A stretch of DNA of 63,977 nt, counting the filler, from Collodictyon triciliatum (taxonomy: Eukaryota): NCBI GenBank assembly GCA_043381765.1. It is 14 parts of 14 records of this genome, joined end to end, with 100 filler letters (N's around TTAATTAATTAA, not from the genome) between each part and the next. Parts side by side here need not be neighbours in the genome. Positions count along the whole stretch, not along the records: positions 37,592 to 42,182 come from JBHJMP010005940.1; 13 more parts are not named here. One strand, given 5' to 3'. This document shows, piece after piece, positions 2,118 to 56,218 of the stretch (position 1 is the first letter of the stretch; each line of letters begins with the position of its first letter). The notes under the pieces are model-generated. The model saw nothing but the letters and a program-made list of their open reading frames with translations, was not told the DNA's origin and made no database searches. The position numbers were made by a program, and so were the translations under genes.

Positions 2118-2284
2118 CTATTTCAGTTGGTGATTAAGATAGAAAAAATACTTCATCTTAAGTGTAAAATTTTCATTAAAAAATTGTTGACTGTAGATAC
2201 TTCGACCATAGTCTCTAATTTGATTTTTGTTTTTGTTGTTTTGTTGTTTTGTTGTTTTGTTGTTTTGTTGTTTTGTTGTTTTGT

Positions 2285-2728
2285 NNNNNNNNNNNNNNNN
2301 NNNNNNNNNNNNNNNNNNNNNNNNNNNNNNNNNNNNNNNNNNNNNNNNNNNNNNNNNNNNNNNNNNNNNNNNNNNNNNNNNNNNNNNNNNNNNNNNNNNN
2401 NNNNNNNNNNNNNNNNNNNNNNNNNNNNNNNNNNNNNNNNNNNNNNNNNNNNNNNNNNNNNNNNNNNNNNNNNNNNNNNNNNNNNNNNNNNNNNNNNNNN
2501 NNNNNNNNNNNNNNNNNNNNNNNNNNNNNNNNNNNNNNNNNNNNNNNNNNNNNNNNNNNNNNNNNNNNNNNNNNNNNNNNNNNNNNNNNNNNNNNNNNNN
2601 NNNNNNNNNNNNNNNNNNNNNNNNNNNNNNNNNNNNNNNNNNNNNNNNNNNNNNNNNNNNNNNNNNNNNNNNNNNNNNNNNNNNNNNNNNNNNNNNNNNN
2701 NNNNNNNNNNNNNNNNNNNNNNNNNNNN
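2285..2728. other. Intra-scaffold assembly gap (444 N)
   Basis: N run with no linker motif. Confidence 1.
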
Positions 2729-3108
2729 GTCGACATGCGCTCAAAACTACCATTGCGAGTCGTGGAGAAATGGTTTTAAACAAAGTGCATATCCAGAAGT
2801 ATTGTGTGTGGGCCCATTCTAGTGCTGTTTCCCAGCTTCTTTTTTTCTTTTTTCCTTTTCTGTTCTTTTTCGCCCTAGATTAGTGCAATAGGTGATGCTA
2901 AAAGATCTTGTAAAAATATATGCCATTAAATGATGAGTTTATGATGGCATCGATATTTTTATTGGAGAGCGACAATTGGTTGGCTGCACACCATCCACAC
3001 AAAGAAAGGCTGCGAGTGGGTATTGTCACCAGGAAGAATGGTGAGTGGGGGGTATAGAACCACGTGCCGTCTGAGACACTCCTCGCCGACTTGCTCCACT
3101 GATTTTGC

Positions 3109-4037
3109 TTACAGTCTGGCAGTGATAAAGTTTATTCAATCACTCCGATAAAGTAAAATGAAACAATGAGCTTTTCATAGATAGTTAAGGCAGTAGGCAG
3201 AAATGAGATACTTTTTTGAGACGCCCATGGCGATCAGAACGATAACTGTAATGATAACCGCGACAACAAAGAAGATGAGCAGGGTGAGCTAATTTGCATG
3301 GAATTCTTGTTAGAGCCATGCGGTTACGTGTAATTAGGGGAACATGAATACTGGAAGTTAAGTTCATAATGAGGGATGTATGTGCCAGTATGTATTCTGT
3401 TAAACTCACTTTGGCGTTCTTCCACCACATGTTTCTCTTGAGGGTAACAGCTTGCTTCTGGAAGACGTGGGCATCCTTGCTGAGATTGTCTATATCCCGT
3501 AATGATAGTGAGGCGACAATGAGGGTGAATAAGAGTGATTAGTGGTGAGATGGAATACTTGATACAAGAATGCACTCATCAATTATAATGAGAGGATATG
3601 TAGAAACCTAGTAAGTGAAGAAAAGGAATGGGGCGAATACAAAATCGTGTAACAGGTTAGAAACCCCCACCGGTTTTATCCTTGAGCACGTCAAGATTTT
3701 CTTGATTTCTTAGAGCAGTGTCTATGTTTTTTTTCATGAGCCCGGTGACTTCATCAACTTGGCCTTGGACTTGCTTGATCTTTTCAGTTCTGGTGCATGT
3801 ATGTATTTTGAGAGTTAGTACTATTCTAACCTCTCTCTCTCTGTCTCTGTCTCTCTTTTTTTAAGAAAAAAATGTGGGAACAAAATGAGATGCGTTTGAG
3901 GGCTACAAAGAAAATGTTAAATATGGTTGTGTGATTAAAGCAAATAGGAAAAGGTGACTGCGATAAGCTCAAATAAGATTTTCGAATTTGTGTTAGCAAG
4001 AAGCAAGAAAGGACACAGTAAAACTCTACCCTGACAT
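3109..4037 (-). CDS. Synaptobrevin/VAMP-type R-SNARE (short brevin, about 100 aa)
   Basis: Five exons splice to MSGTEKIKQVQGQVDEVTGLMKKNIDTALRNQENLDVLKDKTDNLSKDAHVFQKQAVTLKRNMWWKNAKLTLLIFFVVAVIITVIVLIAMGVSKKL*: R-SNARE coiled coil, WWKN motif and C-terminal TM helix. Confidence 0.93.
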
Positions 4038-4602
4038 CTTGCGTGATGCTTCAGTGAGAGAGTTCCTAAAAGTTACGTTAATAAGACCTCAGACTCTGAT
4101 CATTTGTCTTTGAGAGTTTAAGACAACACAAGCACAACACTGTCAAAAAGTAGGACAAAGTCGGCTGAAGGGCTTGGGCTGTATTAGTTGTGCAATATTA
4201 TGCGTGCAAGTGTCCTTTTCGTGTATCCGAGTCTTTTATTAACGATGGTCTTTTGAGTGAAAGCAAAACTAGATGGATGGACACTCCGCAAAGTAATTAT
4301 AGAGCACAGAGTGTGTCTATGTTGACGAGGCAGATTGATCAAATCGAGCAAGTTAAATTCCGACAGCTGATACTCTTCATTTTTCTTCTTTTCTTTTCTT
4401 CTTTTCTTCTTCTTTTCTTCTTCTTTTCTTCTTCTTTTCTTCTTCTTTTCTTCTTCTTTTCTTCTTCTTTTCTTTTCTTCTCTTCTTTTCTTTTCTTCTT
4501 TTCTTTTTCTTTTTTTCTTTTTTTCTTTTTTTCTTTTTTTCTTTTTTCTTTTTTCTTTTTTTCTTTTTTTCTTTTTTTCTTTTTTTCTTTTTTTCTTTTT
4601 TT

Positions 4603-4702
4603 NNNNNNNNNNNNNNNNNNNNNNNNNNNNNNNNNNNNNNNNNNNNTTAATTAATTAANNNNNNNNNNNNNNNNNNNNNNNNNNNNNNNNNNNNNNNNNN
4701 NN
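4603..4702. other. Artificial contig linker (44N-TTAATTAATTAA-44N); repeated at 9304, 14005, 18706, 23406, 28106, 32800, 37492, 42183, 46874, 51565, 56256 and 60947
   Basis: Identical 100-bp spacer with stops in all six frames; intervening segments fall from 4601 to 4591 bp in non-increasing order. Confidence 0.98.
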
Positions 4703-4774
<72 letters not shown>

Positions 4775-4797
4775 GATTCAAGGCTGTTTATATATAC

Positions 4798-7700
4798 CTG
4801 CAATCATTCCTTGCATCAGTCCACACAAACTGGATACGAGATTGAAGTCAACTGATGGTATATTTTCCTTGCATTCCTTCCTGACAAATGCGAGACCTTC
4901 AGGGACGTACTGCTCGAATAATGATACGATAAAGTCCTTTTGGTTGGCATTAATCTGTAATGAGAGTTTTATGTAAAAGAAATGGTCAAATTTCCGTGTA
5001 CTTAATATAAAAATGTCGCAATTATAAGTATTCGGATGTAGGGTAGAAATAGCAATAATAATAGTAATAAGCAGAGCATACATCAGATAATGACTCTGCC
5101 CATGACTTCACGTAGGGTATATATCCTATGACAGATGGTTGCATGTCTGCAAATGGTTCAGGAACTATATGTGGAACTACATGTGGAACATATGCACCTT
5201 GGAAATAATAGAAGACTCCCCATAAAGTCAGAAATATGTACCAGGTTATTTTTCTAATAAATGACTTCAAATATCAAACTAATGTAAAGTCATGCATCAT
5301 CAAGGATACACACCATGCCACAACGACTGACAGTGGCGGGTGATGCATTCGCCAAGTCACCAACTTCAAACATCATATGAACGGTCCTAATCATTAAGAT
5401 TAAAAGATAGCGGGGTTATTCCTGCATTTCGCTAATATTTTCATCCTCCTTTTGTATGTACATTTTATAAGCATAAAATGGTGGCTTTTCCATTCTTTTT
5501 TTCTTTTTTTCTTTTTTTCTTTTTTTCTTTTTTTCTTTTTTTCTTTTTTTCTTTTTTTCTTTTTTTCTTTTTTTCTTTTTTTCTTTTTTTCTTTTCTGTT
5601 AATATCTGGTCTTGGAGATTTTTGATTCTTACACAATGATAAGATTAAAATCTAAGAGTATATGTAAAAAGGACTCACGAAGACAGCTTTATACGCTCTC
5701 CATTGGCCAAACAGAGAAGTTTATTATCATCAAGTACGCTGTTCATGTCTGAATGTAATGTAAAGCAATAATTAAGATTGCTTTGAATGCAATTTGCATC
5801 AATAAAATATCAACAGAAATAAAAAAAATCTATGCTTTAAAAGGATTTGTAGATGAAACCGCTACGTTCCACTTTCACCAAAACAAACTTTCAATCCACA
5901 AGGCATCAACAGGGCCATCAAATATAATCCACTTTTGCATTTTCGAGTGATCATTCACTGATTGTCGGACAATAGACGCTGCGAGTCCATCATGCCATTC
6001 TCTGGTGATTGTGTTGTACTCACCATAAAGTTCACCCATGGTTATACACTAATGAAATATAGCTATTGAGTTATCAAATTACAATCTTTATGTTCGGAAC
6101 AGAAACGCACCTTTGGGTTCATAGTGAAAGTTTTCACTGGCAAGTACGTAGATGTAGTTTTTTGCAGGCTGTTCATAGCTTGTGCAAGAGTCTAATCCGA
6201 CATAACCCCCTCAGACTTTGCTCATTTGTCTAGAAACTGAACTGAAATGCTACACGATTATTATTATTATTTTTGTTTGTGTATCTTGAGAACCTGGTAT
6301 GAAACAGTCTTGCCCGATGCTGTTGGGCCCACAAGCATAACTCCATGTCTTACATTCATCGTTTCGTAAAGCTGTAATACTTTGGTTTCCAAGTCGTGTA
6401 CATACTGGAATAGAAATATGGCTCTAAATTAGTAAAGACAACATAAACCTCATCACATCAACATTATAATTACTCGCCCAGATGCTCCAATTTCGATCAT
6501 TCTTTTAATATATATATATATCACCCACTTGGTATTTGCTAGCGGCTAATGACTGTTTGATCGCCACAGATAAGCTTCCATATTCCTTTTTAAAATGAAA
6601 AATGAGGCATTATTAAATCGTCTTCTATTTAAACTCTTTTTTAAAAACAAAAATTACAATTATAATAAAGATAAGGGTATTTGCTTGCCTCTTCTTTCTC
6701 ACAGAACAAAAAATAAAGACATGTATTGAAAATTACATGCTCCGGGACAACGATTCCTGGAAATAGATCGGACAGAATTCCTTGGAAGAGCGGTACATCC
6801 TCGGCCAGGAATTTGGGAAGGTCTTCAGAAAAAAAATATATTAAATTTTGAGAGAAGGATGCTAGTTTGTTCATTTTTCTGTGAGAAAATAGAAAGAAGG
6901 AAGGAAAATTCCAATGTGGAAGCGAAAATTTAAAACAATACTGCTATCGCGTAAAGCACGGATAAGTACAACATCTTCTTGAAGAGACTGGTTTGCACGC
7001 TTCAATGTACCAGCCATGACAAGAACTGATTTTACTGCTCGAAGTCCAAAATCATAATGGTCTTGCTGTGAAAGTTGCTCAGAGGACAGCTTGTACAAGT
7101 TAACCTTATTATTTTAGAAGAAAAGGAAAGCAACGTGTATTTTGTTAGTATCGCAAAAAATAAACTATTTGAAAAACATTTCATCGCTGGATTCATACTG
7201 CAGGTGAATACGATAATTTCATAAGTACACTTCATACATGGATTAAGTATTTCCTTGATCATATAGAGTTTTTTTTTCATTACCAGCTTTGATGCATACA
7301 TCCTAGCTCCTTCAAAACCTTCAGAAAACAAGATAATCTCAGTAATGAGTGCGTAATCAGGTATCATCATAGCCACCGGGCGAAACAACGCTTGGAGATT
7401 GTCAGGAAGTTCTGTTCTTCCCGCATATCCCGGGTTCATTGTGATGAAATACCTATGTGTCGAATAAATAATCACGATTAGAAAAAAGTACGCCGCAAGG
7501 GGGTAAAAAATAAAATATAGATGTTACCCGCATGTAGGATTCAATTTGATTTCATGTCCTTCGAACATAAATCTTGATAGACGTGCAGACATGGCATACT
7601 TTATCGTCAGGATTTGCTGTGCAATCACAGATAGGACTTCGATGTCAATTCTGGTGGATTGTTTTATTGATAAGTATGTTTTTTTTTGATTTTTTGATTT

Positions 7701-9303: not shown

Positions 9304-9404
9304 NNNNNNNNNNNNNNNNNNNNNNNNNNNNNNNNNNNNNNNNNNNNTTAATTAATTAANNNNNNNNNNNNNNNNNNNNNNNNNNNNNNNNNNNNNNNNN
9401 NNNT

Positions 9405-17956: not shown

Positions 17957-18029
17957 CATCCGCGACGGGAATCGAACCCGCAATCTCCAGATCCGAAGTC
18001 TAACGTGATATCCATTACACTACGCGGAC
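17957..18029 (-). tRNA. tRNA-Arg(UCG), intronless
   Basis: Minus strand GTCCGCG-TA-GTGTAATGGATATCAC-G-TTAGA-CTTCGGA-TCTGG-AGATT-GCGGG-TTCGATT-CCCGT-CGCGGAT-G folds into a 73-nt cloverleaf with anticodon TCG. Confidence 0.93.
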
Positions 18030-23257: not shown

Positions 23258-23920
23258 GTGTGATAGTTTATTATATATTCTTCTAATAAATAAACATTTT
23301 TATGCTTTGTTTTGTTTTGTTTTGTTTTGTTTTGTTTTGTTTTGTTTTGTTTTGTTTTGTTTTGTTTTGTTTTGTTTTGTTTTGTTTTGTTTTGTTTTGT
23401 TTTGTNNNNNNNNNNNNNNNNNNNNNNNNNNNNNNNNNNNNNNNNNNNNTTAATTAATTAANNNNNNNNNNNNNNNNNNNNNNNNNNNNNNNNNNNNNNN
23501 NNNNNTTTTATTCTCTTTTTATTCTCTTTTTATTCTCTTTTTATTCTCTTTTTATTCTCTTTTTATTCTCTTTTTATTCTCTTTTTATTCTCTTTTTATT
23601 CTCTTTTTATTCTCTTTTTATTCTCTTTTTATTCTCTTTTTATTCTCTTTTTATTCTCTTTTTATTCTCTTTTTATTCTCTTTTTCTTTTCTTTTTCTTT
23701 TCTTTTTCTTTTCTTTTTCTTTTCTTTTTCTTTTCTTTTTATTCTCTTTTCTTTTCTTTTCTTTTCTTTCCTTTTCTTTTTGGTTTGTTTTTGTTTCCTT
23801 AGTATTCATGGAAATAAAATCGGTGTGTACCTGGCAACCAATAATAAAATAACTCAAAACTTCGGTTCTTTAGACATAGCATTAACGTAATAATAATAAT
23901 AATTATATAATAATAATAAT

Positions 23921-23989
<69 letters not shown>

Positions 23990-24012
23990 CACACCTAGGG
24001 ATATACTTTGAA

Positions 24013-26236
24013 ATGAAAGCTGCATTTCGTGTGTTGGCTCTTTGTTTCGTCTCATGGCCAACCTTTCATACAGCAGCATCCGGCAGCACATGGGTACCAC
24101 TCTCAGCCATCCGTGTGGATGATGAACCTTGGGGCAGCGGGTATGCAAACTCTCTCGCGATACACGAAGGGACATTAGTCATCGGCGCACAAGGGGTCAA
24201 GAAACCTGGATGGATTAGATATGGTACAGTTTACGTTTATACGGTCAAAGGAAGAGAGTTGGTTTATGACTCGATGCTTGCTCCGTCAACAAGAAAGTCT
24301 GAAAATAAATGTGGAATCAGCGTAAGTGTTTATAGGAGCTGGATTGTTTTTGGTTGTCCAAACGAGCGCATTTTAGATGGCTCGATTGTAGGCGCTGCAT
24401 ATCTTTTTCACAGACAAGATTTAGTATGGGTCGAAGTTCAAAAGTTTTTACCAAGCTCTCCTTGGTTCAATATCTTTGCACTCAACGTTTTTATAAATAA
24501 ATCATTCCTCCTGATTGGAACTCCTAGTGCTTTCAATTATCCGGAGGCTCACGGTGGGGCAGTATGCACTTACATATTTGAAAAAGACGAGTGGAAGAAT
24601 TCTGAATGTTTGAGTTCTACGATTGAAGAACCGACTCCTCTTTTCGGGCATTCCTTTTCATTGACTGAAGAGTTTTTAGCTGTCGGTGCACCAGGTTCGT
24701 TGACATACAGTCGACCAGGATATGTATACGTATACACTTTCCAGCAACAGTGGCAACTAACCCAAAAAATAGTAGGAGACACCTTTGAGGTTGTCGGAGA
24801 ATTATTTGGGAACTCAGTCTCAATGACAGATAATTTGATGGCCATATCCGCTCCACATCAGAAATCTGAGGATGGGAGAATAGGTGTCGTTTATGTCTAT
24901 TCAATGGCGTCTTCAAAGTGGAGACTTCACGCTATAATCAAACCAACGAGTCATTATGAAGAGATGTTGAATGGATACATTATCAGTCTTTCTAAGATAT
25001 ACTTGGAGTTAACCGATGGCACAAAAAGAGTATGGTCATTTAGCTTCAACGGAAATGAGTGGAAGGAGTTATCTCAGACACAAGGACAAAAAAGCGTAAT
25101 GGATGATCATGCTCTGTTCCGAGTGGTTAGCAGTCATCCTACAGCAGATGAAAATACTATATCAGTATACTACAACCCATCTGAATTTACTCGTATGTCT
25201 TTATATTTGATAAAGCACACAAACATCATCATAATTTTTCCGCTTAGCGAGTACTTTTTTTTTTTGTTTATTCGATTCAAAGTTCCGCTTATCTGGTACA
25301 ATCTTTTGAACAGAAACAAATATCGCGACAATATCACGCGTCCCAGAGACAGGTTCCCCAAGATAATTCATATTTTTAGGGAATATTTTGTTTAATCCTT
25401 CTGTTATTTCCCTTAAGGAACCACAAAATATTGGTGTTAATTTTCATGCTTCATGCCCTCACAATTTTTTTCCTGTTGCATATGACTTTGTTTTAAATTA
25501 TCAAAAAAATTTTTAGATAGCGCCTCAGCAATATGTAAGTTTTACATTCTTATGGCTTTCATTTACGTACTTTAAAGGTGATTTATATCACATGAATAAG
25601 TCTGGAGTACTAATGATAAATATTTTTAACAGCAACGGAATCTCCTAGCCATTATTCGTGTATGTTACTATAATATCACAGTAAACCGATAAATTTATGG
25701 AATCAGGATGATAAATTTACTAACTATGCTTGTTTAATTGAATAAAAGTGAAAATTAGTAACTATGTAATATATAGATTCGTGTCCTGTTGATTGTAATA
25801 GGCCCTATCTTGCCATAGGAATATATATTGAAAATATAAGAAAGATAAAGTGCTTTTGTTTTATTATTGTATATGTCTAGTTTGAATCAGCAATTATTTT
25901 ATTTTTATGTTTATATGTTTATGTAGAAAACTTTTAACTTATATAGGGGAAGATATACACAGTAAAGACGATAATGGCAGTATGGTCTATATGATTGTAT
26001 TGACTGGCTTTCTCCTGGCATTTACTCTTGGTGGAATCTGTGTTGCTGTTAAGAGATGCATAGAGAGACGAAAAATGTCAAAAGCGTTGGAAACTGTATT
26101 AGTGAACGATGCTCACCAGAGTGAAGCTGCTCCAAAGGATGACCTCCAAGAGATACTTCAACTCAAGCCCCATGATATGGAATCTGATTACGGGTCTACT
26201 AGTTTGAGATTCGAAATCGAAGACATTCTGGAATAG
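24013..26236 (+). CDS. FG-GAP repeat (integrin-alpha-like beta-propeller) type-I membrane protein
   Basis: N-terminal signal-like peptide; repeats LVIGAQ, IVFGCP, LLIGTP, FGHSFSL..LAVGAP and FGNSVSM..MAISAP with VYVY strands in a ~1.18-kb first exon; small stalk exons; TM helix MVYMIVLTGFLLAFTLGGICVAV followed by KRC in the last exon. Confidence 0.8.
25238..25299 (-). mobile_element. Family A insertion with degenerate 17-bp TSD, in an FG-GAP gene intron
   Basis: TTCCGCTTAGCGAGTAC / TTCCGCTTATCTGGTAC (14 of 17 identical) flank (minus strand) CTTTGAATCGAATAAACAAAAAAAAAAA. Confidence 0.55.
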
Positions 26237-37591: not shown

Positions 37592-37880
37592 GCTTCGCAC
37601 CGCCGAAAAATGCAACGATATTCCACTCCTCGAATGCAACCCCAACCACAGCCGTCCTGAACAACAAAGGAGAATGGCGCTCACGACGTCCCATCTCATA
37701 CGGAGCGTCGTCGCCATTTTTCTTTCGCCTGAAGAACCAAAGGCGGTCCATTACGCCTGATTCTCCGCGATTCTCGATGGCGATGTCATATTCCAAGCTG
37801 CTTCGATATAAAATCATCGGCCCGAATCCCTACAAACCTGAGGTAACCATTCGTTGGGCCGAAACGACAGGCATTATAGA
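37592..37880 (+). mobile_element. Copy of an unclassified coding repeat, homologous to 53307-53597
   Basis: Clear nucleotide alignment with 53307-53597; open frame ...VLNNKGEWRSRRPISYG...MAMSYSKLLRYKIIGPNP...WAET. Confidence 0.75.
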
Positions 37881-37926
37881 CTCGCCTGTGGTTGGTGGTT
37901 GAATCCATCAGCCAGATTTGCTTAAG

Positions 37927-37975
37927 TTATTTTATTCGACCTTTCAATTTGTCCAAAACGGTGGAGGCTTTGGCT
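37927..37975 (-). mobile_element. Diverged family B tail copy
   Basis: AGCCAAAGCCTCCACCGTTTTGGACAAATTGAAAGGTCGAATAAAA aligns with the 1929-1984 insert AGCCAACATCTTCACCATCCTGCACAAAATTGAAAGGAAGAATAAAA. Confidence 0.5.
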
Positions 37976-38019
37976 TTGGGTTTGGTTCGCAAGCCTTGGT
38001 TTGCGCGGGCGCTACTTGA

Positions 38020-38421
38020 AAAGTCAGAGCAGATATGTTCTTGGGATATAGCTACGGATGACTTCTTCCGATTAATATGTGCCCGCAGTTGAAACTTACA
38101 ATTTTGACCTTCGCATATAATCAAAGGCGCATACAACTACGTCGGACTGTAGTAAAATCTAAACACCCTTCCTTCCCTTGAATCGAATAAAGGAAAAATA
38201 AACCTTTGCATATAATCTGATAATCACTTTCTTTGATTCAAAACCGAAAGAGTCTGCCTATGTGAGGGCAGCAAGAAGTATGCATGATGAGAAGTACAGA
38301 TGCGTTCTATAGTACTATTCAATCGATTTGATTGCACAAGGATATCTGGGTCGGCTACATTCATTTGCCATTCAAAATTTATACTATCCGCTCCAACATT
38401 TGGTTCATAACCATAAGGCAT
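38020..38421 (-). pseudogene. MuDR/Mutator-like transposase N-terminal zinc DNA-binding domain remnant
   Basis: One frame with two stops: ...RFYYSPT*LYAPLIICEGQNCKFQLRAHINRKKSSVAISQEHIC, a C-x4-C-x-F-x-LRA...H-x-C pattern as in MULE/FAR1 DNA-binding domains; interrupted by a family A insert at 38160-38203. Confidence 0.45.
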
Positions 38422-38522
38422 TGTTACTTTCGATAGACTTTATCTAGAGTTTTAACACACGAAGCTTATGTTGCAGGGTTACTTATTTACTAGAGAGGTA
38501 TACTAATCGAATGATTGATAAA

Positions 38523-38592
38523 CCTGGTTGGCTAGTATCCAAGGTCTTACCACTTGTTTCACAAAGGTTGTGTAGTGGCGAAGACTGCCAGG
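38523..38592 (-). ncRNA. Candidate Fanzor omega-RNA scaffold (structured core)
   Basis: Starts ~45 nt after the Fanzor ORF end; nested stems CCTGG/CCAGG, GTCTT/AAGAC, CCACT/AGTGG and CACAA/TTGTG, plus a TTGG/CCAA side hairpin. Confidence 0.5.
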
Positions 38593-38637
38593 GAAAGACC
38601 CGACAACCTGTTTTTTTAAAAAGGAAGGGTGTATGCA

Positions 38638-40506
38638 TTATTGAAGGGTTGTAAGAACTTTGTTGGGTATATTATTAGCGCTGTTAAAGTACCTTGTCGA
38701 GAATACACTTTTTTTTGTTTTAGCTATCTGACCCATTGGATTCTTTACATATGAGACATCTATACACTTTTTTTGTATTTCCTTTCGGTAGAATACATTC
38801 CAGTTCTTTTTCGCAGTCACAACACATCTTGGAGGTTCAAAATTCATCGACACTATCTGTTTCAAAACGTTTGGACAGTATTTTTCGTAATCCTCTTTCG
38901 ATTATTGACATAAAATGTTTCATTAGAGATTTTCTGCTCCAGTCTCCATACGCCAGTGCAACATCCTTGCCAAATGTCTCTTCGATTCGGTCCATAAGCA
39001 ATTGTTCACTTCTTTTTGTATTAACATACTGTCTCCATCTCATCTTTCGAAAAGTTACGTGTTCATAAAATCTGGATAATTCTATCTGGTATCTTGATTT
39101 CATAGATACATATTCTCGAAATTATACATAATCGACCGTGTATGATTATGTTTACTCAGTTCTGTCTCTAAATCGATTAAAGATGTTCTTGGTGTCTCAA
39201 ACCGCTGATTCTCTTCAAAAGTCCTGGCACTAAAAGAAACAGCACTTTGTAAATCTGTTGCCATGCATATCCCTGAAACATTGCATTTTTTTTCTCGCGC
39301 AAGAGTATTTTGTGATTTTTAAGAGATTTGCAATCATGTCTTGTTTGGTGTGCCGTGTAACACAATTTCTTACCTGTCTCATCCACCATGTAAACCAAAT
39401 TAAACTTGCCAGCTGTAACAACTTTCTTTTTTGTCGCTAATAAAAATAACTGCTCTTTGGAAAGTTCATCTGTATAAACATATTCTTGGGTTGTTTAGAT
39501 TATATTTGGATTTTGAATTGAAATACCTTTCTTTTCAAACAATAATGGCACCACCAAGCCGTCTGTTTGTATCATGTATTTAAAATTGCAGTTTCTTTGA
39601 TGAAATACCCTCTTCTTCATTACAAAGAACTTATCCCATAGGGTCTCTTTGCATCCTGATATATTCTTCAGTAATAATGATTTCCCAGATAATACTAATA
39701 GACCTTTCAAATATGCAATATCTAGAGTAATATACCATAGTACATAATTAGTTCTTATAGAGATTGGTTGAAACAGTTTGGTTCCAATGTCCTCAAAACT
39801 GTGATTCATGTAAATCAGACATGGAACGTACTTATTTGGATTGACTTTGATGTCATATTCGATACCTTTTACAATATCGCTGGGAATGATATGATGCAGA
39901 TGCGTTATAGCCCATTCTTTATATTGTTCCGGTATTTCGAGATTCTTGAAGATGGCTTTTTTTTTTTTAACTTTCGTAGCTCTGCCTTTTTAATAGCTTC
40001 CGTCATATTCTCATCTTAAGGGTAATGTTGATTTGTAACGCGCAGAAACCTCTTTACCAAATGTCCTTAATTTTATTATGATAAGCTGTTAACATTTGCT
40101 TCGCCAAGTACGGTAATACATGAGACAGCCCAGCCAACGGAAAGCGTTCTTCTCGGGACAAAAGGAATCGAAAATCATTGAGATAAAAAGTCATCATGTC
40201 ATCTCTCATATCTGGTTTTTTTTTTTTAAAACTTGCGGGTCTATATTGTGAAACTATTCTAACTGTCTTTAAAGCGTACAAAAAAACCATTTCATCGATT
40301 GTTGGGAGCTGTTGTGATTTCAGTATGTAACATCTTGGAAACAGATAAGTGTCGGTAAGCAAATTATGACACAATAAAACCGTATCGTTGATTTTGTTAT
40401 AGTCATCCACATTCTTTACAATCGGCTCCAGACATGTTTTCAGATTTCGATAGCCTGGTTTTACATACTTGAGATTCTCAGACTCAAGACGTTTTCTTTT
40501 CTTCAT
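38638..40506 (-). pseudogene. Fanzor1-type (TnpB-derived RuvC nuclease) gene, near full length but frameshifted and inactivated
   Basis: Collinear intronless fragments: LKTCLEPIVK..INDTV; YDIKVNPNKYVPCLIYMN..KLFQPISIRT..YITLD; FKYMIQTDG; VVTAGKFNLVYM..LCYTAHQ; FYEHVTFRKMRWRQYVNTKRSE..FGKDVALAYGDWS..GLRKILSKRF..VDEF*TSKMCCDC..RCLICKES; TRYFNSANNI. Confidence 0.88.
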
Positions 40507-40552
40507 CTGAAAGTCTTTGTTTTACTTTTTCCTTTAGAAAACTACTTAGTTT

Positions 40553-40560
40553 TCAATTTT
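40553..40560 (-). promoter_or_regulatory. AAAATTGA motif (Mimiviridae early-promoter consensus) ~47 nt upstream of the Fanzor ATG
   Basis: Plus strand TCAATTTT at 40553-40560; a 1-mismatch copy CAAATTGA at 40582-40589. Confidence 0.35.
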
Positions 40561-41203
40561 AATAAATCTTTAGTCAATCAGTCAATTTGATAAAAAAAAT
40601 AAAATAAAATAAAAAACTGCATAAAATCAATTCAGGTAAAAGTAAGCATCTACCGAGACTTTCAAAATGTGCGCATTGTGGCAAACAAACACACAAAGTT
40701 TTTTATAAGTGATTTGAGACAAAACGCTGAGAGCCGATTCGGCGAGTTCGAAAGGACGGCCGTATATCAATTGCGACTGAAAGTCAACACATTGGTTCCA
40801 GACAACATGATTACCGCCGCAAGTGTGGATAGTGTGGTTTTATGAAATGGATGTTTGGTGGCAGGTTTATAGCGTGGGTTCTGTCTGGGCCAAGGCAAAG
40901 GCTTGTTTGTAATTTTTGAATTTAATATTGCATGAATGGAAAATAAAATATAAATTAATTACAGAATAGATTGATATTATTAAGTATTTTTAACCTTATC
41001 ATATATCCTAATTATTATACTATTATTCAGGTTGTTTCTTAGATTCACCAAAGCTCCTGCTTTTGTCAATCCAGATTTAATATGATGGCTGTTTGTGCAA
41101 TAAATTGTTATGTATGGGTACACTTTCGTTGGATTAAAAATGTAGTGTCTTGAAAGGGGATAAAACCAAGTTTCTCACAACCTTCGCGATGAAGTTTATC
41201 CAT

Positions 41204-41737
41204 TTACAAGCCGTATGAGACCTAAGAAAAAAAAAGGGAAAAAGAAAAAAAGGGAAAAAGAAAAAAAAGAAAAAGAAAAAGAAAAAGAAAAAGAAAAAGA
41301 AAAAGAAAAAGAGAAAGAAAAAAAGAAAAAAAGAAAAAGAAAAAGATAAAGATAAAGATAAATGAATCAGAGCAACTAAATCTGTGCATTATATTCATAC
41401 TTATGTTGCTACCCGTGGGTCTATAGCAGAACTTGAATCATATACGCCCTTTCTTCAGCAGTTTCTTATTCCCTTGCTACCCGTTAGTTTATTTTTAGAG
41501 CTCGATAAGTCATTTTTTATTCCACTTTATTATTATTATTATATTTGTGTCAAAGAAATCGCTCCGTCTTATTCATAGGTTGTTGTACTCACGGGTCGGT
41601 GGCAGCTGGCGTCTCGATCGTCGGTGTGTCGCTGTGCATAACCTGTGTTGAAAGGGATTTGGTAAAGTGACCTTTTCGCTCTCCGTGTTGGTTGTTGCGG
41701 CCTTTTCAGTTTGCGTACGATCAGTAGGCGTTTCCAT
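41204..41737 (-). CDS. Small hypothetical spliced gene
   Basis: Three exons can splice to METPTDRTQTEK...RRSRRQLPPTRNKKLLKKGVYDSSSAIDPRVSYGL*; no family recognised. Confidence 0.3.
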
Positions 41738-42448
41738 GGGGCAGGGCTGTGGCGTCGGTCTTCTGGTAGGCGCTCTCGTCCTTCTCAGGATCCCTCTTTC
41801 CGATCACTTGCGTGTTTTCTTTTTTCCCGACTTCTGAATGTGGGGTTAGGAGAAGAAGGGAAGAACGCCAGTGTAATAATATTATATTCTGGAGAAGGTG
41901 TATTTTTTTTTCTCTCCGTGTTTATTATTTCTCAGCAAAGGAGACTTCGTAATATTGTTTTTTTATTTTGCTGTTCCTCTCAAGTTTGTCTCTCTCAGTG
42001 TGATCTCCACATTTATTCGCATTGTGAGGTGTAGAATAGATCGATCTTTGGAGAAAATTCTTCACACAAACCCACAAACCCACAAACAAACCCACAAACG
42101 GATATAAAACAAAAAACAAAAAACAAAAAACAAAAAACAAAAAACAAAAAACAAAAAACAAAAAACAAAAAACAAAAAACAANNNNNNNNNNNNNNNNNN
42201 NNNNNNNNNNNNNNNNNNNNNNNNNNTTAATTAATTAANNNNNNNNNNNNNNNNNNNNNNNNNNNNNNNNNNNNNNNNNNNNTTATGTTTTTGTTTTTTA
42301 TGTTTTTGTTTTTTATGTTTTTGTTTTTTATGTTTTTGTTTTTTATGTTTTTGTTTTTTATGTTTTTGTTTTTTATGTTTTCTCACCAAAGGGGTATGAC
42401 TTTTACAGATAGATTGAGTGCAATATATATGGAAACGAAAGGTCTCAG

Positions 42449-46817: not shown

Positions 46818-48285
46818 CAGAGAGAGAGGACCAAAAAACACACCCACCCGCCCACACGCGCCCGCCACCCCCCNNNNNNNNNNNNNNNNNNNNNNNNNNN
46901 NNNNNNNNNNNNNNNNNTTAATTAATTAANNNNNNNNNNNNNNNNNNNNNNNNNNNNNNNNNNNNNNNNNNNNTTTTTATGTTTTTTATGTTTTTTTTAT
47001 GTTTTTTATGTTTTTTTTATGTTTTTTTTATGTTTTTTTTATGTTTTTTTTATGTTTTTTTTTGTTTTTTTATGTTTTTTTATGTTTTTTTATGTTTTTT
47101 TTATGTTTTTTTTATGTTTTTTTATGTTTTTTTATGTTTTTTTATGTTTTTTTATGTTTTTTATGCTTTTTATGCAAGGTCGAGAGAGAAAGATCCGGCT
47201 GAGCAATTGGAAGAGGACACTAGACAGAAAATAGTTGGGGTAGTCGACCGATCCAGGGAAATGGTGTGTCTTTTCTTCTGTGCGTCTGTTGTTCCTGGAA
47301 GGATGTGACTCACGCAACACGATTATTCCCCAGCGTCGGGCGTCTGATCCGCGAGGCTTTTGATCACTCGATGGTGCTTGGCTAATCACCTTTCAGAACC
47401 GAGGGTTTGATCTGGTGCAGAGGAATCCAGGTTTAACAGAACATTCATTGAATGAAGGGAACATAATTTTAACCACGTTTGGATTAATTCTTTCAAATTG
47501 TATTGTCTTTAAGGGACAGAATAAAGCATCCCGCTCAAACTATCCTTATATGTATGCTGTTTCGAATATTTTCTAATTGTGGAAAATTTGGTTTCTCAGA
47601 TTTATTCCAATTGTCCAGTTCCCAGACCCAATGCATCGTTATACACAAAATAAAACAAAAAACAAAAAACAAAAACAAAAATAAAAATAAAAATAAAAAT
47701 AAAAATAAAAATAAAAATAAAAATAAAATAAAAATAAAAAACAAAAACAAAAAATAAAACAAAAACAAATACAAAACCAAAACCAAAAATAAAAACAAAA
47801 ACAAAAACAAAAACAAAAACCAAAACAAAAAACCAAAACCAAAAATAAAAATAAAAAACAAAAACAAAAACAAAAATAAAAATAAAAATAAAAAACAAAA
47901 ACAAAAAACAAAAAACAAAAAATAAAACAAAAACAAAAAACAAAAACCAAAACCAAAACCAAAACCAAAGACAAAGACAAAACCAAAATAAAAAATAAAC
48001 AAAAAACAAAAACAAAAAACAACATAAAACAAAAAACAAGCTAATAAATGTTACCAGCAATAAAAAAAAAAGATTATTGTATGAGTTGTAAATCTTAAAT
48101 AATTCGATAATAATCACATAGATAGTATTTCTTCGGTAAAATATTAATAAATAAAGGGGTGGGGTAAATGAAAAAACATGAATCTGGAACTATCAGCTCA
48201 TTTGATAAGATTAGTTATCTAGTATATTAACGTTTTCATTATTTTATGATGTTTGGTTTATGAAGTAATCCAAGCAGCCAACGAA

Positions 48286-50109
48286 ATGAATCAAGCGAAT
48301 GCTCGAAATGCGTGGACGAACGTCCAAGTTGATCCAGTTGGGCAAAGAAATGAAGCAAACATCTTGGGAAATGGTGAAGACAGGGCGGGAACGATGAGAC
48401 TCAAGATTGAGGCAGATATCAAATACATCGACGGAAGAAAAACATTCCTCTCTGCAATTATTTCGAACAAGTTTTCACTCCATTTCATCGTTCACTTATA
48501 CAAAACTAAACTGATGGGCTCTATAATGATGCTACTTTGGCTTGGATGTACAGTTTTGTTCTTCTCTTACGTTTATAAAAGACCAATTTTACCGGCCAAA
48601 ACGTATGTGATTCTGCAAATATTACAATCTTTAAACTTTACCTTGGGAAACGCTGCTTTTATTCGCATGGAAATAGTGAAGTCTTTAACAAAGTCGTTCA
48701 GTTTCTGGTATACGATGTGGAACATCATAACTTTCCACGTCTGCGCTTTTTTTGTATGGGGAGTATCTGCTCCAACCGTCTGTATAGTAACCCACTCCTT
48801 TACTTCGATTGTATTTACTATGGTTTTCTACGACGCACACGCATTTAAAATTCTGCCATTCCTGAAGCTATCGACTGTTCTGGGAGTGTTTTCTTACTCA
48901 ATTGTTGCCGTTGGAATCCAATTCAACCTCATTGACCTAGAACCAGTCTCTTTTGAAGACAGAGGAAGGAACATTCAATACCTTGATTTAAATGCTCAGA
49001 TAATGGACAGCTTGATTATAATGATAATATACTTTTTCCGAATCATATACAACCATTTGATAAAAGGGAAAACAACACGAATAGCTTTTCTATCCAAATA
49101 CTATGTTATGGACAGCAATCCATCAGAGATGAATAATCGCGGTGTTCCTCTAAATAATAGTGAAATCTTCGAACTAAATCATTATTCATCGACTGAAACT
49201 TTCCATGTTCCTCAGAAGAACAAACGAAATAGGTTGTTTATCCCCGTCATTCCTTTGAAAGAAGGAGAACCTATGCACAGTATGCATAGAGACGATGAGA
49301 GACGTAGCAATGGAAATCCTGAAAGATCCAAAAGTAATCAGCCAGTTCAATGCCATTCAGATTTTCACATGAAAATAGGCATTACGGAGACAAAATATGT
49401 TGTTTATGATAAAAAGGACACCATCTATCATAGTTTTATTAAAAACCAGTTCCCTCTGGTCTCGAAAATAATCAGATCGAAAGCTTACTCGCTTAGTGGA
49501 CTTCTGTTTGGTATCATACCGGCTTACATGTCCCTTCCCATCATCGCAGACTGTGACCTGGGAGTATTTTATTCAAATGTGATAATGATTGGGGCTTTTA
49601 TTGGCTCAACAATAACCTTGGTTCAAATAATAGTAACAAGCAATCGGTTTATGGTGAGGAATATGATGTCCTCGTTTGATTTCTGGTATGTGGTGTTCTT
49701 GATTGTGAAAATATTTGTGTCCTTTGGGATTCTGTGCAACTGGGATATCAGAATGGTCTATCTAGTCGGCTCAATGGTGGGATATATGTGGTGTGTGATG
49801 ATAGATTCATTTAGTGCTTCGAGGAGGATGCTGTCATACGTTTCCATTACCGGGATTATCTGGATGGTAAGTGTATGGGTTTTTTGTAAATTCTCTATTG
49901 GAGGTATGTTCCAGGAGAACGAGCGCTTGATGCTATCCAACATCACCGTCTTAACGCCCCGAACGGTTCTTGCTGGCTCTCTTTTTTCATCTATTTTATT
50001 CATGCTCCGCTTTCTATGGAGTTACCATCGAGACCCGATGCGCGTTCTGTTCATCACAGAAAACATAGTTGTGGAAAAGCTGCCACGATGCCCTGCTGCC
50101 CCTTTATAA
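48286..50109 (+). CDS. Intronless multi-pass membrane protein with two internally duplicated TM blocks
   Basis: 607-codon uninterrupted ORF from the first ATG; repeated motifs IVKSLTKSFSFWY / MVRNMMSSFDFWY, FYDA / MIDS and YFFRIIY / FMLRFLW. Confidence 0.85.
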   Translation: MNQANARNAWTNVQVDPVGQRNEANILGNGEDRAGTMRLKIEADIKYIDGRKTFLSAIISNKFSLHFIVHLYKTKLMGSIMMLLWLGCTVLFFSYVYKRPILPAKTYVILQILQSLNFTLGNAAFIRMEIVKSLTKSFSFWYTMWNIITFHVCAFFVWGVSAPTVCIVTHSFTSIVFTMVFYDAHAFKILPFLKLSTVLGVFSYSIVAVGIQFNLIDLEPVSFEDRGRNIQYLDLNAQIMDSLIIMIIYFFRIIYNHLIKGKTTRIAFLSKYYVMDSNPSEMNNRGVPLNNSEIFELNHYSSTETFHVPQKNKRNRLFIPVIPLKEGEPMHSMHRDDERRSNGNPERSKSNQPVQCHSDFHMKIGITETKYVVYDKKDTIYHSFIKNQFPLVSKIIRSKAYSLSGLLFGIIPAYMSLPIIADCDLGVFYSNVIMIGAFIGSTITLVQIIVTSNRFMVRNMMSSFDFWYVVFLIVKIFVSFGILCNWDIRMVYLVGSMVGYMWCVMIDSFSASRRMLSYVSITGIIWMVSVWVFCKFSIGGMFQENERLMLSNITVLTPRTVLAGSLFSSILFMLRFLWSYHRDPMRVLFITENIVVEKLPRCPAAPL

Positions 50110-51664: not shown

Positions 51665-53597
51665 TGGACGTGTGGCCGCAACTCCTTCGTGAGGAGCTGA
51701 AGCCGTTCAGACCGACCCCCTCAGGACATCAAAAAGGACAAAGGCTTCTTCACAGACACGGCCGTGGTGAAGCTTCTTTGCCACAAGAACCAGCTCCCTT
51801 CAAAGTTTACGGTCATGGGTAAAAAGTGTCCAAATTGCATCCTCAAAGAGCGTCCGCCGGTCGCGAACAACGAACGACAGGTAAAAGCTCTGCAAAAGAA
51901 TACACCTGCCAAGCGGAAAAGCAGCAACGTGGTCAAGGAAGCCAAGGCCAGGCAAACAGCAGAGCCCGCAAGACTCACAGCAGATACGCGCATACAGCGA
52001 CAGCGACGACGACATGGAAGGAAATCTCGGTTCCTCTTCAGAATCTACGCACTCGAGCCCTTCATCACCGACACTGGACAAGCCCGCACATCGCAAGACC
52101 CAAGAGCAGCGCATCTCCAAACCCCGAAAGGAATCCCCCCTTGAACTACCCATTCAGACTGACGTGAATATGATTAAAGAGGAGGCATCAAGGCAGTCTT
52201 TGTTACTTATCCGAAAGGAAACTCCAAAGCGAAGGCAACACAAGAACCAGCGCCCACCAAAGATAGTCCGTTTATCCTGCCCCAGCCCTTCGCACCGAGA
52301 ACCAAGGAGCAAGAGCAAACAGCACAAGCCGAATACAAGCTTGGAACTTCACACACCCAAGACAGTCCGAGCAAGCAGGAGCGTATGTTTCTAAAACCAC
52401 AAACGCTTATCCATACTCCGGTTAAGCAAAGTCCACTGCCGGCTATGCATGGTTCCGAAACCAGGGGACGGTCAAGCGCCGCTTCCGATATTTCCAGACA
52501 AACAACGATGTATCGCTTTTTGTCTGAGTCGCCCAGCAAGAAACGCAAGGAAAATGACCCGTTATCCTCTCAAAAGACTCATCCTGTGAGATGAAAAAAA
52601 TGTAAATCTTGTCTGGGATAGACGGTTGAAAGGACTCGTCGGAATCGATTTGAGAAGTTACTGCAATGCGCGTATTTTCGTCGACCCGACAACTTTAACC
52701 GCTTCTTCTGCCAGTCTCGAATACAACCAGAAATCGTGTTGGACTCAATCACCTCGGGTAGAATATTCTGCGTGTGAGAACACTTTCTCTCCTTTCTATT
52801 TTCTTTTCTTTTTCCACCCAAAACATAAAAACTCCAACCACACAATCAGGGGTTTCCACCGTCTTGTCCGCAGCTCATTTATGTCTTAGAGGCGAAGGCG
52901 GTTTCCTCGGCTTTGTTTTCTCTCAATAAACTGTTGAAAAGAAATCGAAAATAACGTCTGGTATTGCATGGACATCGCTCACGATGAGATGGTGGACAGA
53001 TATGCTTATCCATCCGAAAGGATTTTGGCAGCATGGAATGTGGCATCTTATTCACCGCATATGTCCGAACTTCAAAGCACAGCTCTGTGAGAGTAGAATC
53101 CCATCACCCCCCGCCAAACACTCCCGAGCCGCTACTAGCGCGGTGGAAGATTCTGTATGAAAACTGTGAAATGTGCGAGTCTACCCAACTACATGCTGTT
53201 ACAGGTCAAATCTGCTGGGATAGAGCGAGAGGCTTCTGTATCATCAAGTCGAGAGAAGGAAACAGCTCCTTCATTCTGCAACATGTCGCTTTCCAAAAGG
53301 ATGGGAGCTTCGCACCGTCGAAAAATGCAACGATATTTCACTCCTCGAGTGCGACAGCCAGCCACAGTCGTCCTGAACAACAAAGGAGAATGGCGCTCAC
53401 GACGCCCCATCTCATACGGAGCACCGTCGCCATTTTTCTTTCGCCTGAAAAACCAAAGGCAGTCCATTATACCTGACTCATTGAATTATCTATGGCCATG
53501 TCATAATCCAACCTGTTTTGATACAAAATCATCAGTCCTAATCCTCAATAACCGGAGAAAATGAGTTAATGGGCCGAAACTATACGCATTACAGACA
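51665..53597 (+). mobile_element. Decayed, GC-richer, intron-free element of unknown class
   Basis: Overlapping broken ORFs with CxxC motifs (CPNC, CEMC); its last ~290 bp recur at 37592-37880; multiple stops and frameshifts. Confidence 0.55.
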
Positions 53598-54638: not shown

Positions 54639-56218
54639 TCAAGAGAAGATGTTTATCCACCACATAGTATAGAGAAAACAATGGCTCGAAAAAGATAATA
54701 GTATAATTCTATTCATAGGTCTCCAACTTTTAAACCCATCCTCACTAATATGACCCTTGTGTATTTCAATCGAAAGCGTTGTGATGTCTGACAAAATTTC
54801 AAATATTAGTTGTATCAGGATTTGATAGAAGCATATAGAAAACGATTTGATTACTTGAAATTTTGATTCTTTTGCCAAAGGTTGCATAAAATACATGAGC
54901 AAGGGTGCGAATATGATTGAATAGAACTCCGATATGATACCGTCATAGATGTATTTTGCCTTGAATGCGATTGATTCTTTCACAAAATTCGCTTCTTTAC
55001 CTAATAGACTCAATTGATTATCATGCTCTCTTACATGCAAGCCTTGAGAATACTGAGCCTCATCTCCAGGGATGATGGGAGCAAGCTTTCTCGATTTCAA
55101 TCGATATGATAATTTTGACTGAATACTAGATGCCAAATTTTGTATCCGAAACACACATTTCATCCTTTGTTCGAAAAATACGGTCGAAAGTATCTCAATC
55201 ACAGCTGCTGCAAAGTTGACCATGATGAATTCAATAGAAATATGTTTGAAATCAATATTCTTCCAACTAACTGAATGAAGTGATTGCACATCGTGTTCAT
55301 AGTCAACCTTTTATCCGTGTACTCTTTCGATAAGCAATTTATCAGCCTCAGCTGAATCCAATTTGATGAAACAAAACAAACAGGGAAAACAGCAAAACGG
55401 AAAACAAGCTGCATGGTAAATGAAGAATTTATATAAATCTCCAATATGTTGGAAAGAGAGAAGACTACAAGAACGTAAAATGCAGCCAACCCTTTCAGTA
55501 AAGCAGATACCGAGCCGTCTTTTGTTGCAGTGTAATATCGTTCTTCCTCATTGCTCATTTCCTCAGGTTTTTTTGATTTAGAAACTATGAATAAACCGAT
55601 AACAATCCAAATGAATTGATTAATGACAAAGATGTTTATTAACACCGTGTTTGAGGCCAACAAGAAGTTAATGATATTGTCCAAAATGCATCCTGGTAAA
55701 AGGGCATACAATATTGCATTTTTTGAGAACTGGAGGCTGAAAATCTCAACAGATGCAAAAGCGAAGGATGACCAAACTGCAAACGCACTCAAAAGAACTC
55801 TTCCACTTTGGTAGGTGATATCCTCGACCATCCCAAGCAAACTCGGAGACAGTACAATGGCGGGTATGAAGTAAATCCAAAGAGAAAATAGATTTGCTGA
55901 GAAGACGGGCAATACCTCATATACAGCCTTCAACCATAATATACATGCCAGCCTCACGAAACTAATGCACGAAGTCTTGATTAAAGCTTCATCGTTTCCT
56001 TCCTGCTCACTCTTTCTGTCTTCATTTATTGTTCCCGGCTGATTATTCTGTGAATTACTTCCAACTGGCCCGTCTGCATTCTGAAATCTTGTTGTATTTT
56101 TACAGCTTTCTGGTCGTGTGACTATTTTTCCTGTCTGCTCATCTCTCTTGTGCGGTTCTGGTTGCCTTTGTGTTTTGATCTGGTCTGGTGTCTTCTCTTC
56201 GATCTCCTCAAAACCCAT
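54639..56218 (-). pseudogene. Intronless multi-pass membrane protein gene split by one frameshift near 55240-55250 (pseudogene or sequence error)
   Basis: ORFs 55199-56218 and 54639-55289 overlap and read on as ...GRILISN / ISIEFIMVNFAAAVIEIL...ISEFYSIIFAP...QLIFEILSD... Confidence 0.65.

Follow-up and report, generated by a model that had tools for sequence, protein, structure and literature searches.

The stretch at positions 38638-40506 of the window studied here (a 63,977-nucleotide stretch of DNA from Collodictyon triciliatum) is a near full-length, intron-free and decayed gene for Fanzor1, a eukaryotic, transposon-borne RNA-guided DNA endonuclease of the TnpB family, lying on the minus strand. 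The window is made of 14 records joined with filler, the copy falling within the part that comes from JBHJMP010005940.1 (positions 37,592-42,182), and its neighbouring parts are not necessarily neighbours in the genome. We propose that this locus is one dead gene copy within a multi-copy, transposase-less repeat family of ~2.6 kb, carried by the host or its close relatives, and we give this explanation as a whole a probability of about 0.92.

The identity of the locus is apparent from its collinearity with an intact relative. When 5.8 billion proteins were searched with the translated fragment 38720-39121, a single one of 22 word-sharing candidates passed: P0001, an intact protein of 648 amino acids (aa), which matches the fragment at 66% identity (E=1.4e-50). 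In the reverse direction, tblastn of P0001 on the window showed that the copy is collinear with residues 1-633 of this protein, in pieces that fall in three frames of the minus strand. Residues 1-148 correspond to 40506-40063 (64% identity), 180-412 to 39962-39270 (55%), 402-455 to 39303-39140, 455-595 to 39145-38723 (65%) and 596-633 to 38720-38599, with a joint E-value of 2e-114 for the first pieces; the gap at residues 149-179 is bridged in the third frame by HLVKRFLRV...ELRKL. The frame map accordingly describes a pseudogene at 38554-40506 on the minus strand, which starts at an ATG at 40506 and runs through six collinear reading-frame segments (40506-40063, 40063-39956, 39956-39288, 39285-39142, 39145-38723 and 38715-38554) interrupted by five frameshifts and five in-frame stops. 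The stitched protein, in which the segments were joined with an X at each break, shares 369 of 636 aligned residues (58%) with P0001. The locus is matched by all 269 of 269 Fanzor1-family proteins, while none of the 628 high-scoring segment pairs lies elsewhere in the 64-kb window, which makes it a single remnant, far beyond chance. A preliminary description of this DNA, made from the sequence alone, had reported near full-length, collinear and intron-free minus-strand fragments, and both the tblastn pieces and the frame map confirm them; its positions were right, except that the homologous frame extends ~85 bp further 3', to ~38554. The contrast it drew with intron-rich host genes holds for the single gene that was mapped, a dynein heavy chain.

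The assignment to Fanzor1 by descent, rather than to Fanzor2 or TnpB, is firm, and follows from the matches to Fanzor1 chains in the Protein Data Bank (PDB), from a family profile, from a structural model of P0001 and from the catalytic fingerprint of this protein. Fragment 38720-39121 matched the Fanzor1 chains 9cf0 (E=9.5e-9), 8gkh (3.5e-8) and 9cer (3.6e-5), the other three of its six PDB matches having E-values of at least 0.26; for fragment 39177-39989, all three matches were Fanzor1 chains, with 9cf0 at E=0.0015 and the remaining two at 0.69 and 0.77. A profile built from 40 family sequences matched SpuFz1 (8gkh) at E=4e-103 over profile positions 7-598 of 608, PpFz1 (9cf0) at 1.7e-100 and GtFz1 (9cer) at 3.2e-74; the only further matches were two LaTranC chains (E ~5e-4) over 65 profile positions. 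The AlphaFold2 model of P0001 has a predicted local distance difference test score (pLDDT) of 85.3 and a predicted template-modelling score (pTM) of 0.83. When it was compared with the PDB by Foldseek, the top seven of 127 matches were all Fanzor1 structures (SpuFz, PpFz and GtFz) with template-modelling (TM) scores of 0.63-0.78, and the superposition on SpuFz1 reached 0.72/0.77 at ~20% sequence identity in the structural alignment. The Fanzor2 structure 9b0l ranked 22nd (TM 0.22, E=7.4e-5), TnpB 8h1j gave TM 0.19 (E=8e-4) and the Cas12f chains TM ~0.2 (E ~1e-5). Neither Fanzor2 nor TnpB appeared among the PDB sequence matches of the two window fragments and of the family profile; a Fanzor2 or TnpB identity is ruled out by this lack of a sequence match together with the TM scores of 0.19-0.22. 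Sequence, profile and structure searches thus give a significant similarity of the stitched protein to Fanzor1 and only a weak one to Fanzor2, TnpB and Cas12, so that the similarity to RuvC, TnpB and Fanzor profiles on which the preliminary description would have stood or fallen is present. Pfam, applied to six window fragments, returned only a sub-threshold match to Cas12f1-like_TNB (E=0.31), and even P0001 reached no more than E=0.11; the Pfam set used does not detect this family. The family itself is large, P0001 having 3147 relatives at E<=1e-3 and 537 at E<=1e-30 among 1.84 billion cluster representatives. P0001 carries the full Fanzor fingerprint, namely a DPG motif, a Glu located six residues ahead of the first CxxC, the C4 zinc finger and an RD, as expected from the RuvC signature with DPG and an alternative Glu in the account of Yoon et al. 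2023 (PMC10711439) and from the motif [TS][TS]-x-x-C4 zinc finger followed by RD that Bao and Jurka 2013 (PMC3627910) describe.

The same signatures can be read in the window copy, in a damaged form. Every motif of the Fanzor1 series named in the preliminary description was found on the minus strand at the place given for it, including YDIKVNPNKY..LIYMN at 39857-39828, IQTDG at 39572-39558 and AYGDWS at 38953-38936, with FRKMRWRQY...RSE also present. At RuvC-I (39405-39422, minus strand), the GVDPGK of the family, which P0001 retains, is reduced to VVTAGK; the DPG motif has become V-T-A-G with the loss of one residue, and the catalytic Asp is replaced by Thr. The RuvC-II block (38828-38848, minus strand) reads DEF-TGA-TSK, and continues as DEF-TGA-TSKMCCDC at 38848-38813; the TGA at 38839-38837 occupies a position where relatives have Arg or Lys, and the alternative Glu is kept six positions ahead of the first CxxC (E555, invariant in 40 of 40 sequences). 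All four Cys of the C4 zinc finger, whose columns are invariant in the family alignment, persist in the remnant at 38747-38824 on the minus strand (CCDC at 38824-38813 and CLIC at 38758-38747). At RuvC-III (38668-38697, minus strand) the block TRYFNSANNI, which includes NSANNI, has a Tyr in place of the catalytic Asp of RD. The signature of zinc finger followed by RD, complete in P0001, is therefore broken here at its last element, the TS and the four Cys being kept and RD reading RY. In the 40-member alignment, the window copy departs from five of 14 invariant columns (P254L, D364T, P365A, E391D and D604Y) and from two of 26 near-invariant ones; of these, D364 and D604 correspond to the aspartates of RuvC-I and RuvC-III, respectively, and the RuvC-II glutamate E555 survives. 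Of the five frameshifts in the open reading frame (ORF), one lies near 40063, a second within a run of 13 A at about 39956, a third close to 39288, and the last two at 39144 and 38715-38723; the in-frame stops are TAA at 40018, 39497, 39124 and 38640 and TGA at 38839. The earlier statement that the copy is dead, which cited VVTAGK at RuvC-I, the TGA after DEF, RY for RD and several frameshifts, was upheld in each particular. Judged by its sequence, the window copy is inert as an RNA-guided nuclease: two of its three catalytic carboxylates are lost, its frame is broken ten times and its 3' region lacks a stable fold.

The repeated nature of the locus is evident from public sequencing data. By word sampling, 12 public runs from seven studies share 5-17% of the sampled words of the stretch, and the contigs of four of these runs (X1-X4) were placed on 37600-42180 at a likeness of at least 80%. 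The contigs thus placed, which are 80-99% alike, number 605, 584, 217 and 119 in X1-X4, respectively, counts that include two neighbouring repeats; at the listed sites of the ORF, 3-17 distinct contigs were found in X1 and 3-21 in X2. Summed X1 and X2 depth is 139-356 per bin across the ORF (38671-40506) and 173-441 at 40660-41118, and contig depth falls to ~1 below 38518 and to zero on the flank 38212-38364. Several contigs span the ATG into upstream sequence, for example at 40417-40841 and 40501-40917, and in X1 as in X2 a single contig passes straight from 41094 to 41559, a joint that omits 464 bases. The repeat unit, as delimited by the drop in depth, the bridging contigs and this joint, therefore runs from ~38505-38520 to at least 41094, which is ~2.6 kb. 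The contigs from which P0001 and a second protein, P0391, derive are 2610 and 2597 bp long, and this agreement with the length of the unit is suggestive only. Upstream of the ATG, the bridging contigs and the X1 and X2 depth define a co-repeated non-coding stretch of ~590 bp (40507-41094, minus strand), whose ORFs have no Pfam match, in which tblastn and hmmsearch with viral transposases found no transposase remnant, and which gave low-complexity matches only when compared with viral loci. The A/G-rich microsatellite stretch that follows (41095-41558) is absent from some copies, as the joint shows, and is probably an insertion or expansion within the repeat or at its edge. A GC-richer, separate repeat lies beyond it at 41578-41880 (very abundant at 41578-41730), with the highest contig depth of the region covered (828 in X1 and 668 in X2, but only 10-18 in the metagenome runs); it adjoins the Fanzor unit in the copies that carry the joint 41094->41559.

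The copies within this family are a mixture of differently decayed members. The extra base at 39144 in sister copies accounts for 141 of 189 depth units in X1 and for all of X4, a 7-base difference at 38716 places the last two segments in one frame in sisters, and the stop at 40018 is AAA in seven of seven X1 contigs. Translated by eye, the loose ends of sister contigs at 39410 and 39419 read ..IIVGVDAGKFN, in which the RuvC-I Asp is kept, and two X1 records with loose ends at 38723 read SDSK(TAA)SVFLTRDF, in which RD is kept and a stop of their own is present. The only demonstrably intact members are the 648-aa sisters P0001 and P0391, which are identical at 640 of 648 positions (eight differences). 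The suggestion in the preliminary description that intact sister copies may exist elsewhere was therefore met in part, by these two proteins in public protein data, which are 58% identical to the window copy, and by contigs that keep the RuvC-I Asp or the RuvC-III RD. Two freshwater-metagenome runs, from two studies, show copies of the family and not the locus itself. No RNA data set is recorded as containing the stretch; X1 and X2 may be RNA runs, which is no more than a guess.

The closest relatives for which a DNA context is available come from giant viruses. At E<=1e-20, P0001 has 242 relatives of similar length, the closest of which are 41-46% identical and nearly all unnamed metagenome proteins, and its Atlas neighbours belong to clusters that are 92-100% viral (Nucleocytoviricota) and carry the Pfam family DUF8286. 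Of 30 candidate stretches from a scan of viral contigs, 13 were confirmed, all on IMG/VR giant-virus contigs or metagenome-assembled genomes (MAGs), at 27-47% identity, with the ten closest loci at 41-47% identity to P0001; the corresponding scan of metagenome contigs with P0001 gave one distant locus only (21% identity). In five of the viral loci (L002, L003, L004, L005 and L010), the Fanzor gene lies tail-out in a 3.3-kb element beside a divergent transposase of IS630/Tc1-mariner type (300-346 aa), for which Pfam confirmed DDE_3 and helix-turn-helix domains in L002 and L005, and BLASTP showed homology in L004. These 3.3-kb elements have perfect or near-perfect inverted ends of 32-33 nt. Inverted ends of 31-33 nt were present in five of the seven viral loci searched (L002, L004, L005, L006 and L010), and none were found in the other two, L007 and L009. 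At 2156-4898 of its contig, L006 is a 2.74-kb Fanzor1-only element with 31-nt inverted ends, whose transposase gene is reduced to the C-terminal half (aa ~169-343, ~50% identity), which makes it a naturally occurring deletion product of the two-gene element of 3.3 kb. The viral elements also end in a structured 3' region (L002 4733-4952, L005 4730-4949, L004 4700-4919 and L006 4679-4898). The last 201 nt of L002 fold with z=-5.58, which none of 200 shuffles equalled, and the four viral 3' ends share a consensus structure with compensatory changes in 11 of 50 pairs. This structure overlaps the end of the ORF and pairs with the right inverted repeat, and is presumably a guide-RNA scaffold by analogy with the one described for SpuFz1.

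The phylogenetic position of the window copy was estimated from a quick, unrooted maximum-likelihood tree of 64 rows, the named Fanzor1 references at hand being limited to PDB matches. The window copy groups with P0001 and P0003 in a clade with a support of 100 in the Shimodaira-Hasegawa-like approximate likelihood-ratio test (SH-aLRT) and a stem of 0.81, and this clade joins a polytomy with a 40-row clade that holds L002-L006. The terminal branch of the window copy measures 0.74 and that of P0001 0.10, a difference in keeping with a pseudogene. No mention of DUF8286 or PF26935 was found in the set of papers searched, a search that did not extend to the supplementary tables of Fanzor surveys, which may already include this lineage.

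When the 3' region of the window copy is compared with those of the viral elements, a related segment can be located. When the four viral 3' regions were combined in a covariance model, its best match within 37600-42180 lay at 38616-38486 on the minus strand, which is where it would be expected positionally. The stretch 38486-38616 (minus strand) comprises the 3' tail of the ORF and the sequence downstream; it shows weak homology to the right inverted end and the structured 3' RNA of the viral elements, and probably represents the degraded scaffold region of a guide RNA (omega-RNA). The last 201 nt of the window copy fold with z=-0.45, 62 of 200 shuffles being at least as good. A 13-nt pair at 38162 and 38633 that resembles the tip of the viral ends was rejected as a candidate for element ends, since it lies within homologous coding sequence and the motif occurs 18 times where 15.3 are expected.

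Several observations weigh against the proposed explanation of a dead copy in a transposase-less repeat family, or limit its reach. Neither tblastn nor a three-sequence hidden Markov model detected any similarity to transposases anywhere in the window. No significant inverted repeat surrounds the unit and no target-site duplication was found in the window; the best inverted pair, 38505-38522 with 40569-40587, has a score of 21 that 51 of 300 shuffles reached. Viral-type ends aligned to 37600-42180 no better than to shuffles. Of the features that L002, L004, L005, L006 and L010 possess, namely terminal inverted repeats, a duplicated TA and a DDE transposase, whole or as a remnant, none was found for the window copy. 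The covariance match reaches only 15 bits (rough E-value 0.003) and is partly due to homology of coding sequence, which makes the link to a guide RNA weak. P0001 and P0391, at 58% identity to the window copy, may represent another subfamily or belong to another host. The runs that contain sister copies do not cover the unique flank and may stem from other species. The frameshift in the run of 13 A could be a sequencing error. Finally, no direction of transfer between virus and host can be read from a tree that is unrooted, in which long branches meet and the window clade, on a long stem, joins a polytomy.

Other explanations of the same locus must account for the breaks in its frame and for its surroundings. 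It could be supposed that the gene is alive, and that its breaks are short introns, recoding events (a variant code or programmed frameshifts) or assembly errors; the host is indeed intron-rich, Fanzor genes can gain introns according to PMC10530073, one frameshift lies inside the 13-A run, and all but one of the five stops are TAA. Successive pieces adjoin or overlap one another, however, and without intervening sequence there is no room for introns. At the positions of the stops the relatives have Lys, Arg, Glu or Tyr and not a single residue throughout, and one stop is TGA. The standard code leaves host ORFs of 491 and 619 aa open, and a variant genetic code does not restore the frame. Moreover, the catalytic D364 and D604 and three further invariant residues are substituted, and the sister contigs differ from the window copy precisely at its lesions. 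A live gene is consequently very hard to reconcile with the data. A contaminant origin or a chimeric assembly of the scaffold, whether as a whole or in this part, has nothing positive in its favour and is just as implausible, in view of the even base composition (GC 0.28-0.46 across the window and 0.355 at the locus), of the same kinds of microsatellites to either side and of the eukaryotic, intron-bearing genes that lie on both sides.

Somewhat less remote, and still improbable, is the view that the copy belongs to an integrated fragment of a giant virus, that is, to an endogenous viral element and not to a transposon family resident in the host. The nearest relatives with a context do lie in contigs of giant-virus MAGs, the Atlas neighbours are 92-100% Nucleocytoviricota, and several of the long ORFs in the vicinity are intronless. 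Against this, no viral hallmark gene was seen in the window, and the flanks contain intron-rich genes for dynein, a P4-ATPase and a RhoGEF. Two of the long intronless ORFs are without close relatives on viral contigs, a weak test, as single-protein queries find close relatives only. The copy further belongs to a short repeat, for which X1 and X2 contain 3-21 variants at each listed site, while its immediate flank is unique, and its clade stands apart from the viral clade on a long stem. We therefore retain the explanation of a dead Fanzor1 copy within a repeat family of the host or its close relatives.

This family can be placed among systems already described. SpuFz1 of Spizellomyces punctatus (8gkh and 9ceu-9cez), PpFz1 (9cf0) and GtFz1 (9cer) are full-length members of the same family, and have in common with P0001 the fingerprint of DPG, alternative Glu, C4 zinc finger and RD. 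As presented in PMC10432273, the SpuFz1 element encodes the nuclease only, between inverted ends, with the guide RNA just past the stop codon; the window copy differs in being a pseudogene for which neither 30-nt inverted ends nor a folded 3' RNA was found. The closest relatives with DNA context are the giant-virus Fanzor1 proteins (DUF8286) in IS630/Tc1-mariner elements, of the PGv-1 and PUl type in the nomenclature of Bao and Jurka 2013 (PMC3627910). They share the length class (593-634 aa) and have a homologous C-terminal tail and 3' region, and the 2.74-kb Fanzor-only L006 resembles the ~2.6-kb unit of the window; Fanzor-only Mariner elements (PUl-4) appear in the same publication (PMC3627910). 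The viral elements differ by their 31-33-nt inverted ends, their DDE_3 transposase or its remnant and their folded 3' RNA, none of which the window copy shows, and the latter lies in a clade of its own with P0001 and P0003, in the context of a eukaryotic chromosome. A similar state of decay is recorded in PMC3627910 for CMe-1A of Cyanidioschyzon merolae, an old non-autonomous family of mostly decaying copies with few intact ORFs; contigs that are 80-99% alike and two intact sisters recall it here, a likeness by description only. Fanzor2, TnpB and Cas12f share the RuvC fold and the zinc finger, with weak structural matches, but a protein of P0001 type is ~200 residues longer than TnpB and has an N-terminal half of Fanzor1 type.

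The surroundings of the copy are poor in genes. No recognisable genes were found in the stretch from about 36 to 48 kb of the window, where the copy sits between other repeats. One of these is a 290-bp dispersed repeat at 37592-37881, which recurs at 53307-53596 with 83% identity, has a high depth in all four runs and gave no tRNA or Rfam match. Farther away, Pfam identified a P4-ATPase at ~32.8-35.4 kb, on the same strand as the Fanzor copy, and a RhoGEF at ~29 kb. An intronless ORF of 491 aa at 23920-25395 (plus strand) encodes an FG-GAP protein (FG-GAP repeat, E=2e-16) and is preceded by a poly-Asn-coding AAT microsatellite. The axonemal dynein heavy chain at 5.3-8.8 kb aligns in pieces of 33-130 aa separated by gaps of ~170-210 bp, and one of its exons is 55-60% identical to animal, fungal and protist proteins alike. 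The intronless 619-aa ORF at 48250-50109 (plus strand) is predicted to encode a multi-pass membrane protein and belongs to no Pfam family; its Atlas leads are weak (0.81-0.88), some of them to Piezo-like clusters, and it has no close relative on viral contigs. Two long adjoining ORFs of 346 and 223 aa at 54639-56239 (minus strand) are likewise membrane-protein-like and match no Pfam family. The sole Rfam match in the window is a tRNA gene at 17957-18029 (minus strand, 60 bits), adjoined by a GC-rich stretch at 16.7-17.9 kb (GC 0.45), where long ORFs overlap on the two strands and repeats of CAG/CTG type occur. Microsatellites are unusually dense throughout the window, with di- to octanucleotide units, many of them at ORF-like lengths. 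The window also contains 1588 N, in a strictly regular pattern of 44 N, 12 bases and 44 N every ~4700 bases (4603-4702, 9304-9403, ... 60947-61046) and in one block of 444 N at 2285-2728; these blocks, mostly in or beside microsatellites, look like artefacts of masking or scaffolding rather than biology.

With regard to function and origin, a working element of this kind would produce a protein that binds an omega-RNA, the guide RNA to which the element's own 3' end gives rise, and that, so guided, would cut matching DNA beside a short target-adjacent motif. RNA-guided cutting with an RNA derived from the 3' end has been established for SpuFz1 and other Fanzors (PMC10432273, PMC10530073), and by analogy we infer that the intact members of the present family act as RNA-guided nucleases. 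It can be hypothesised that the family entered the host lineage on a two-gene element of IS630/Tc1-mariner transposase and Fanzor1, similar to those of giant viruses, that it then lost the transposase and multiplied, and that it is now decaying; the window copy would have decayed neutrally within an intergenic, repeat-rich stretch. Pseudogenes and multi-copy families of Fanzor1 are well known, with up to 122 copies per genome according to PMC10530073, and the account in PMC3627910 already covers Fanzor1 carried by Mariner elements, derivatives that keep Fanzor alone, carriage by viruses and old families in decay. A bolder and, in our estimation, rather unlikely possibility is that the window copy, P0001 with P0391, and P0003 belong to an undescribed radiation, within host genomes, of Fanzor1 of the giant-virus type (DUF8286), acquired from a giant-virus mariner element and present as many 2.6-kb copies without a transposase or recognisable ends. 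If this were true, the copies would have to be mobilised in trans or by some route that has escaped recognition, and those members still intact would function as RNA-guided nucleases in a eukaryote of fresh water.

A dead copy alone changes nothing, and its value is that of a pointer. It marks a distinct branch beside the giant-virus Fanzor1 proteins, located in a eukaryotic chromosome, and it leads to two intact relatives of 648 aa that are testable as compact RNA-guided nucleases. It also provides a case for asking how virus-borne elements that combine mariner and Fanzor settle and multiply in their hosts after the loss of the transposase.

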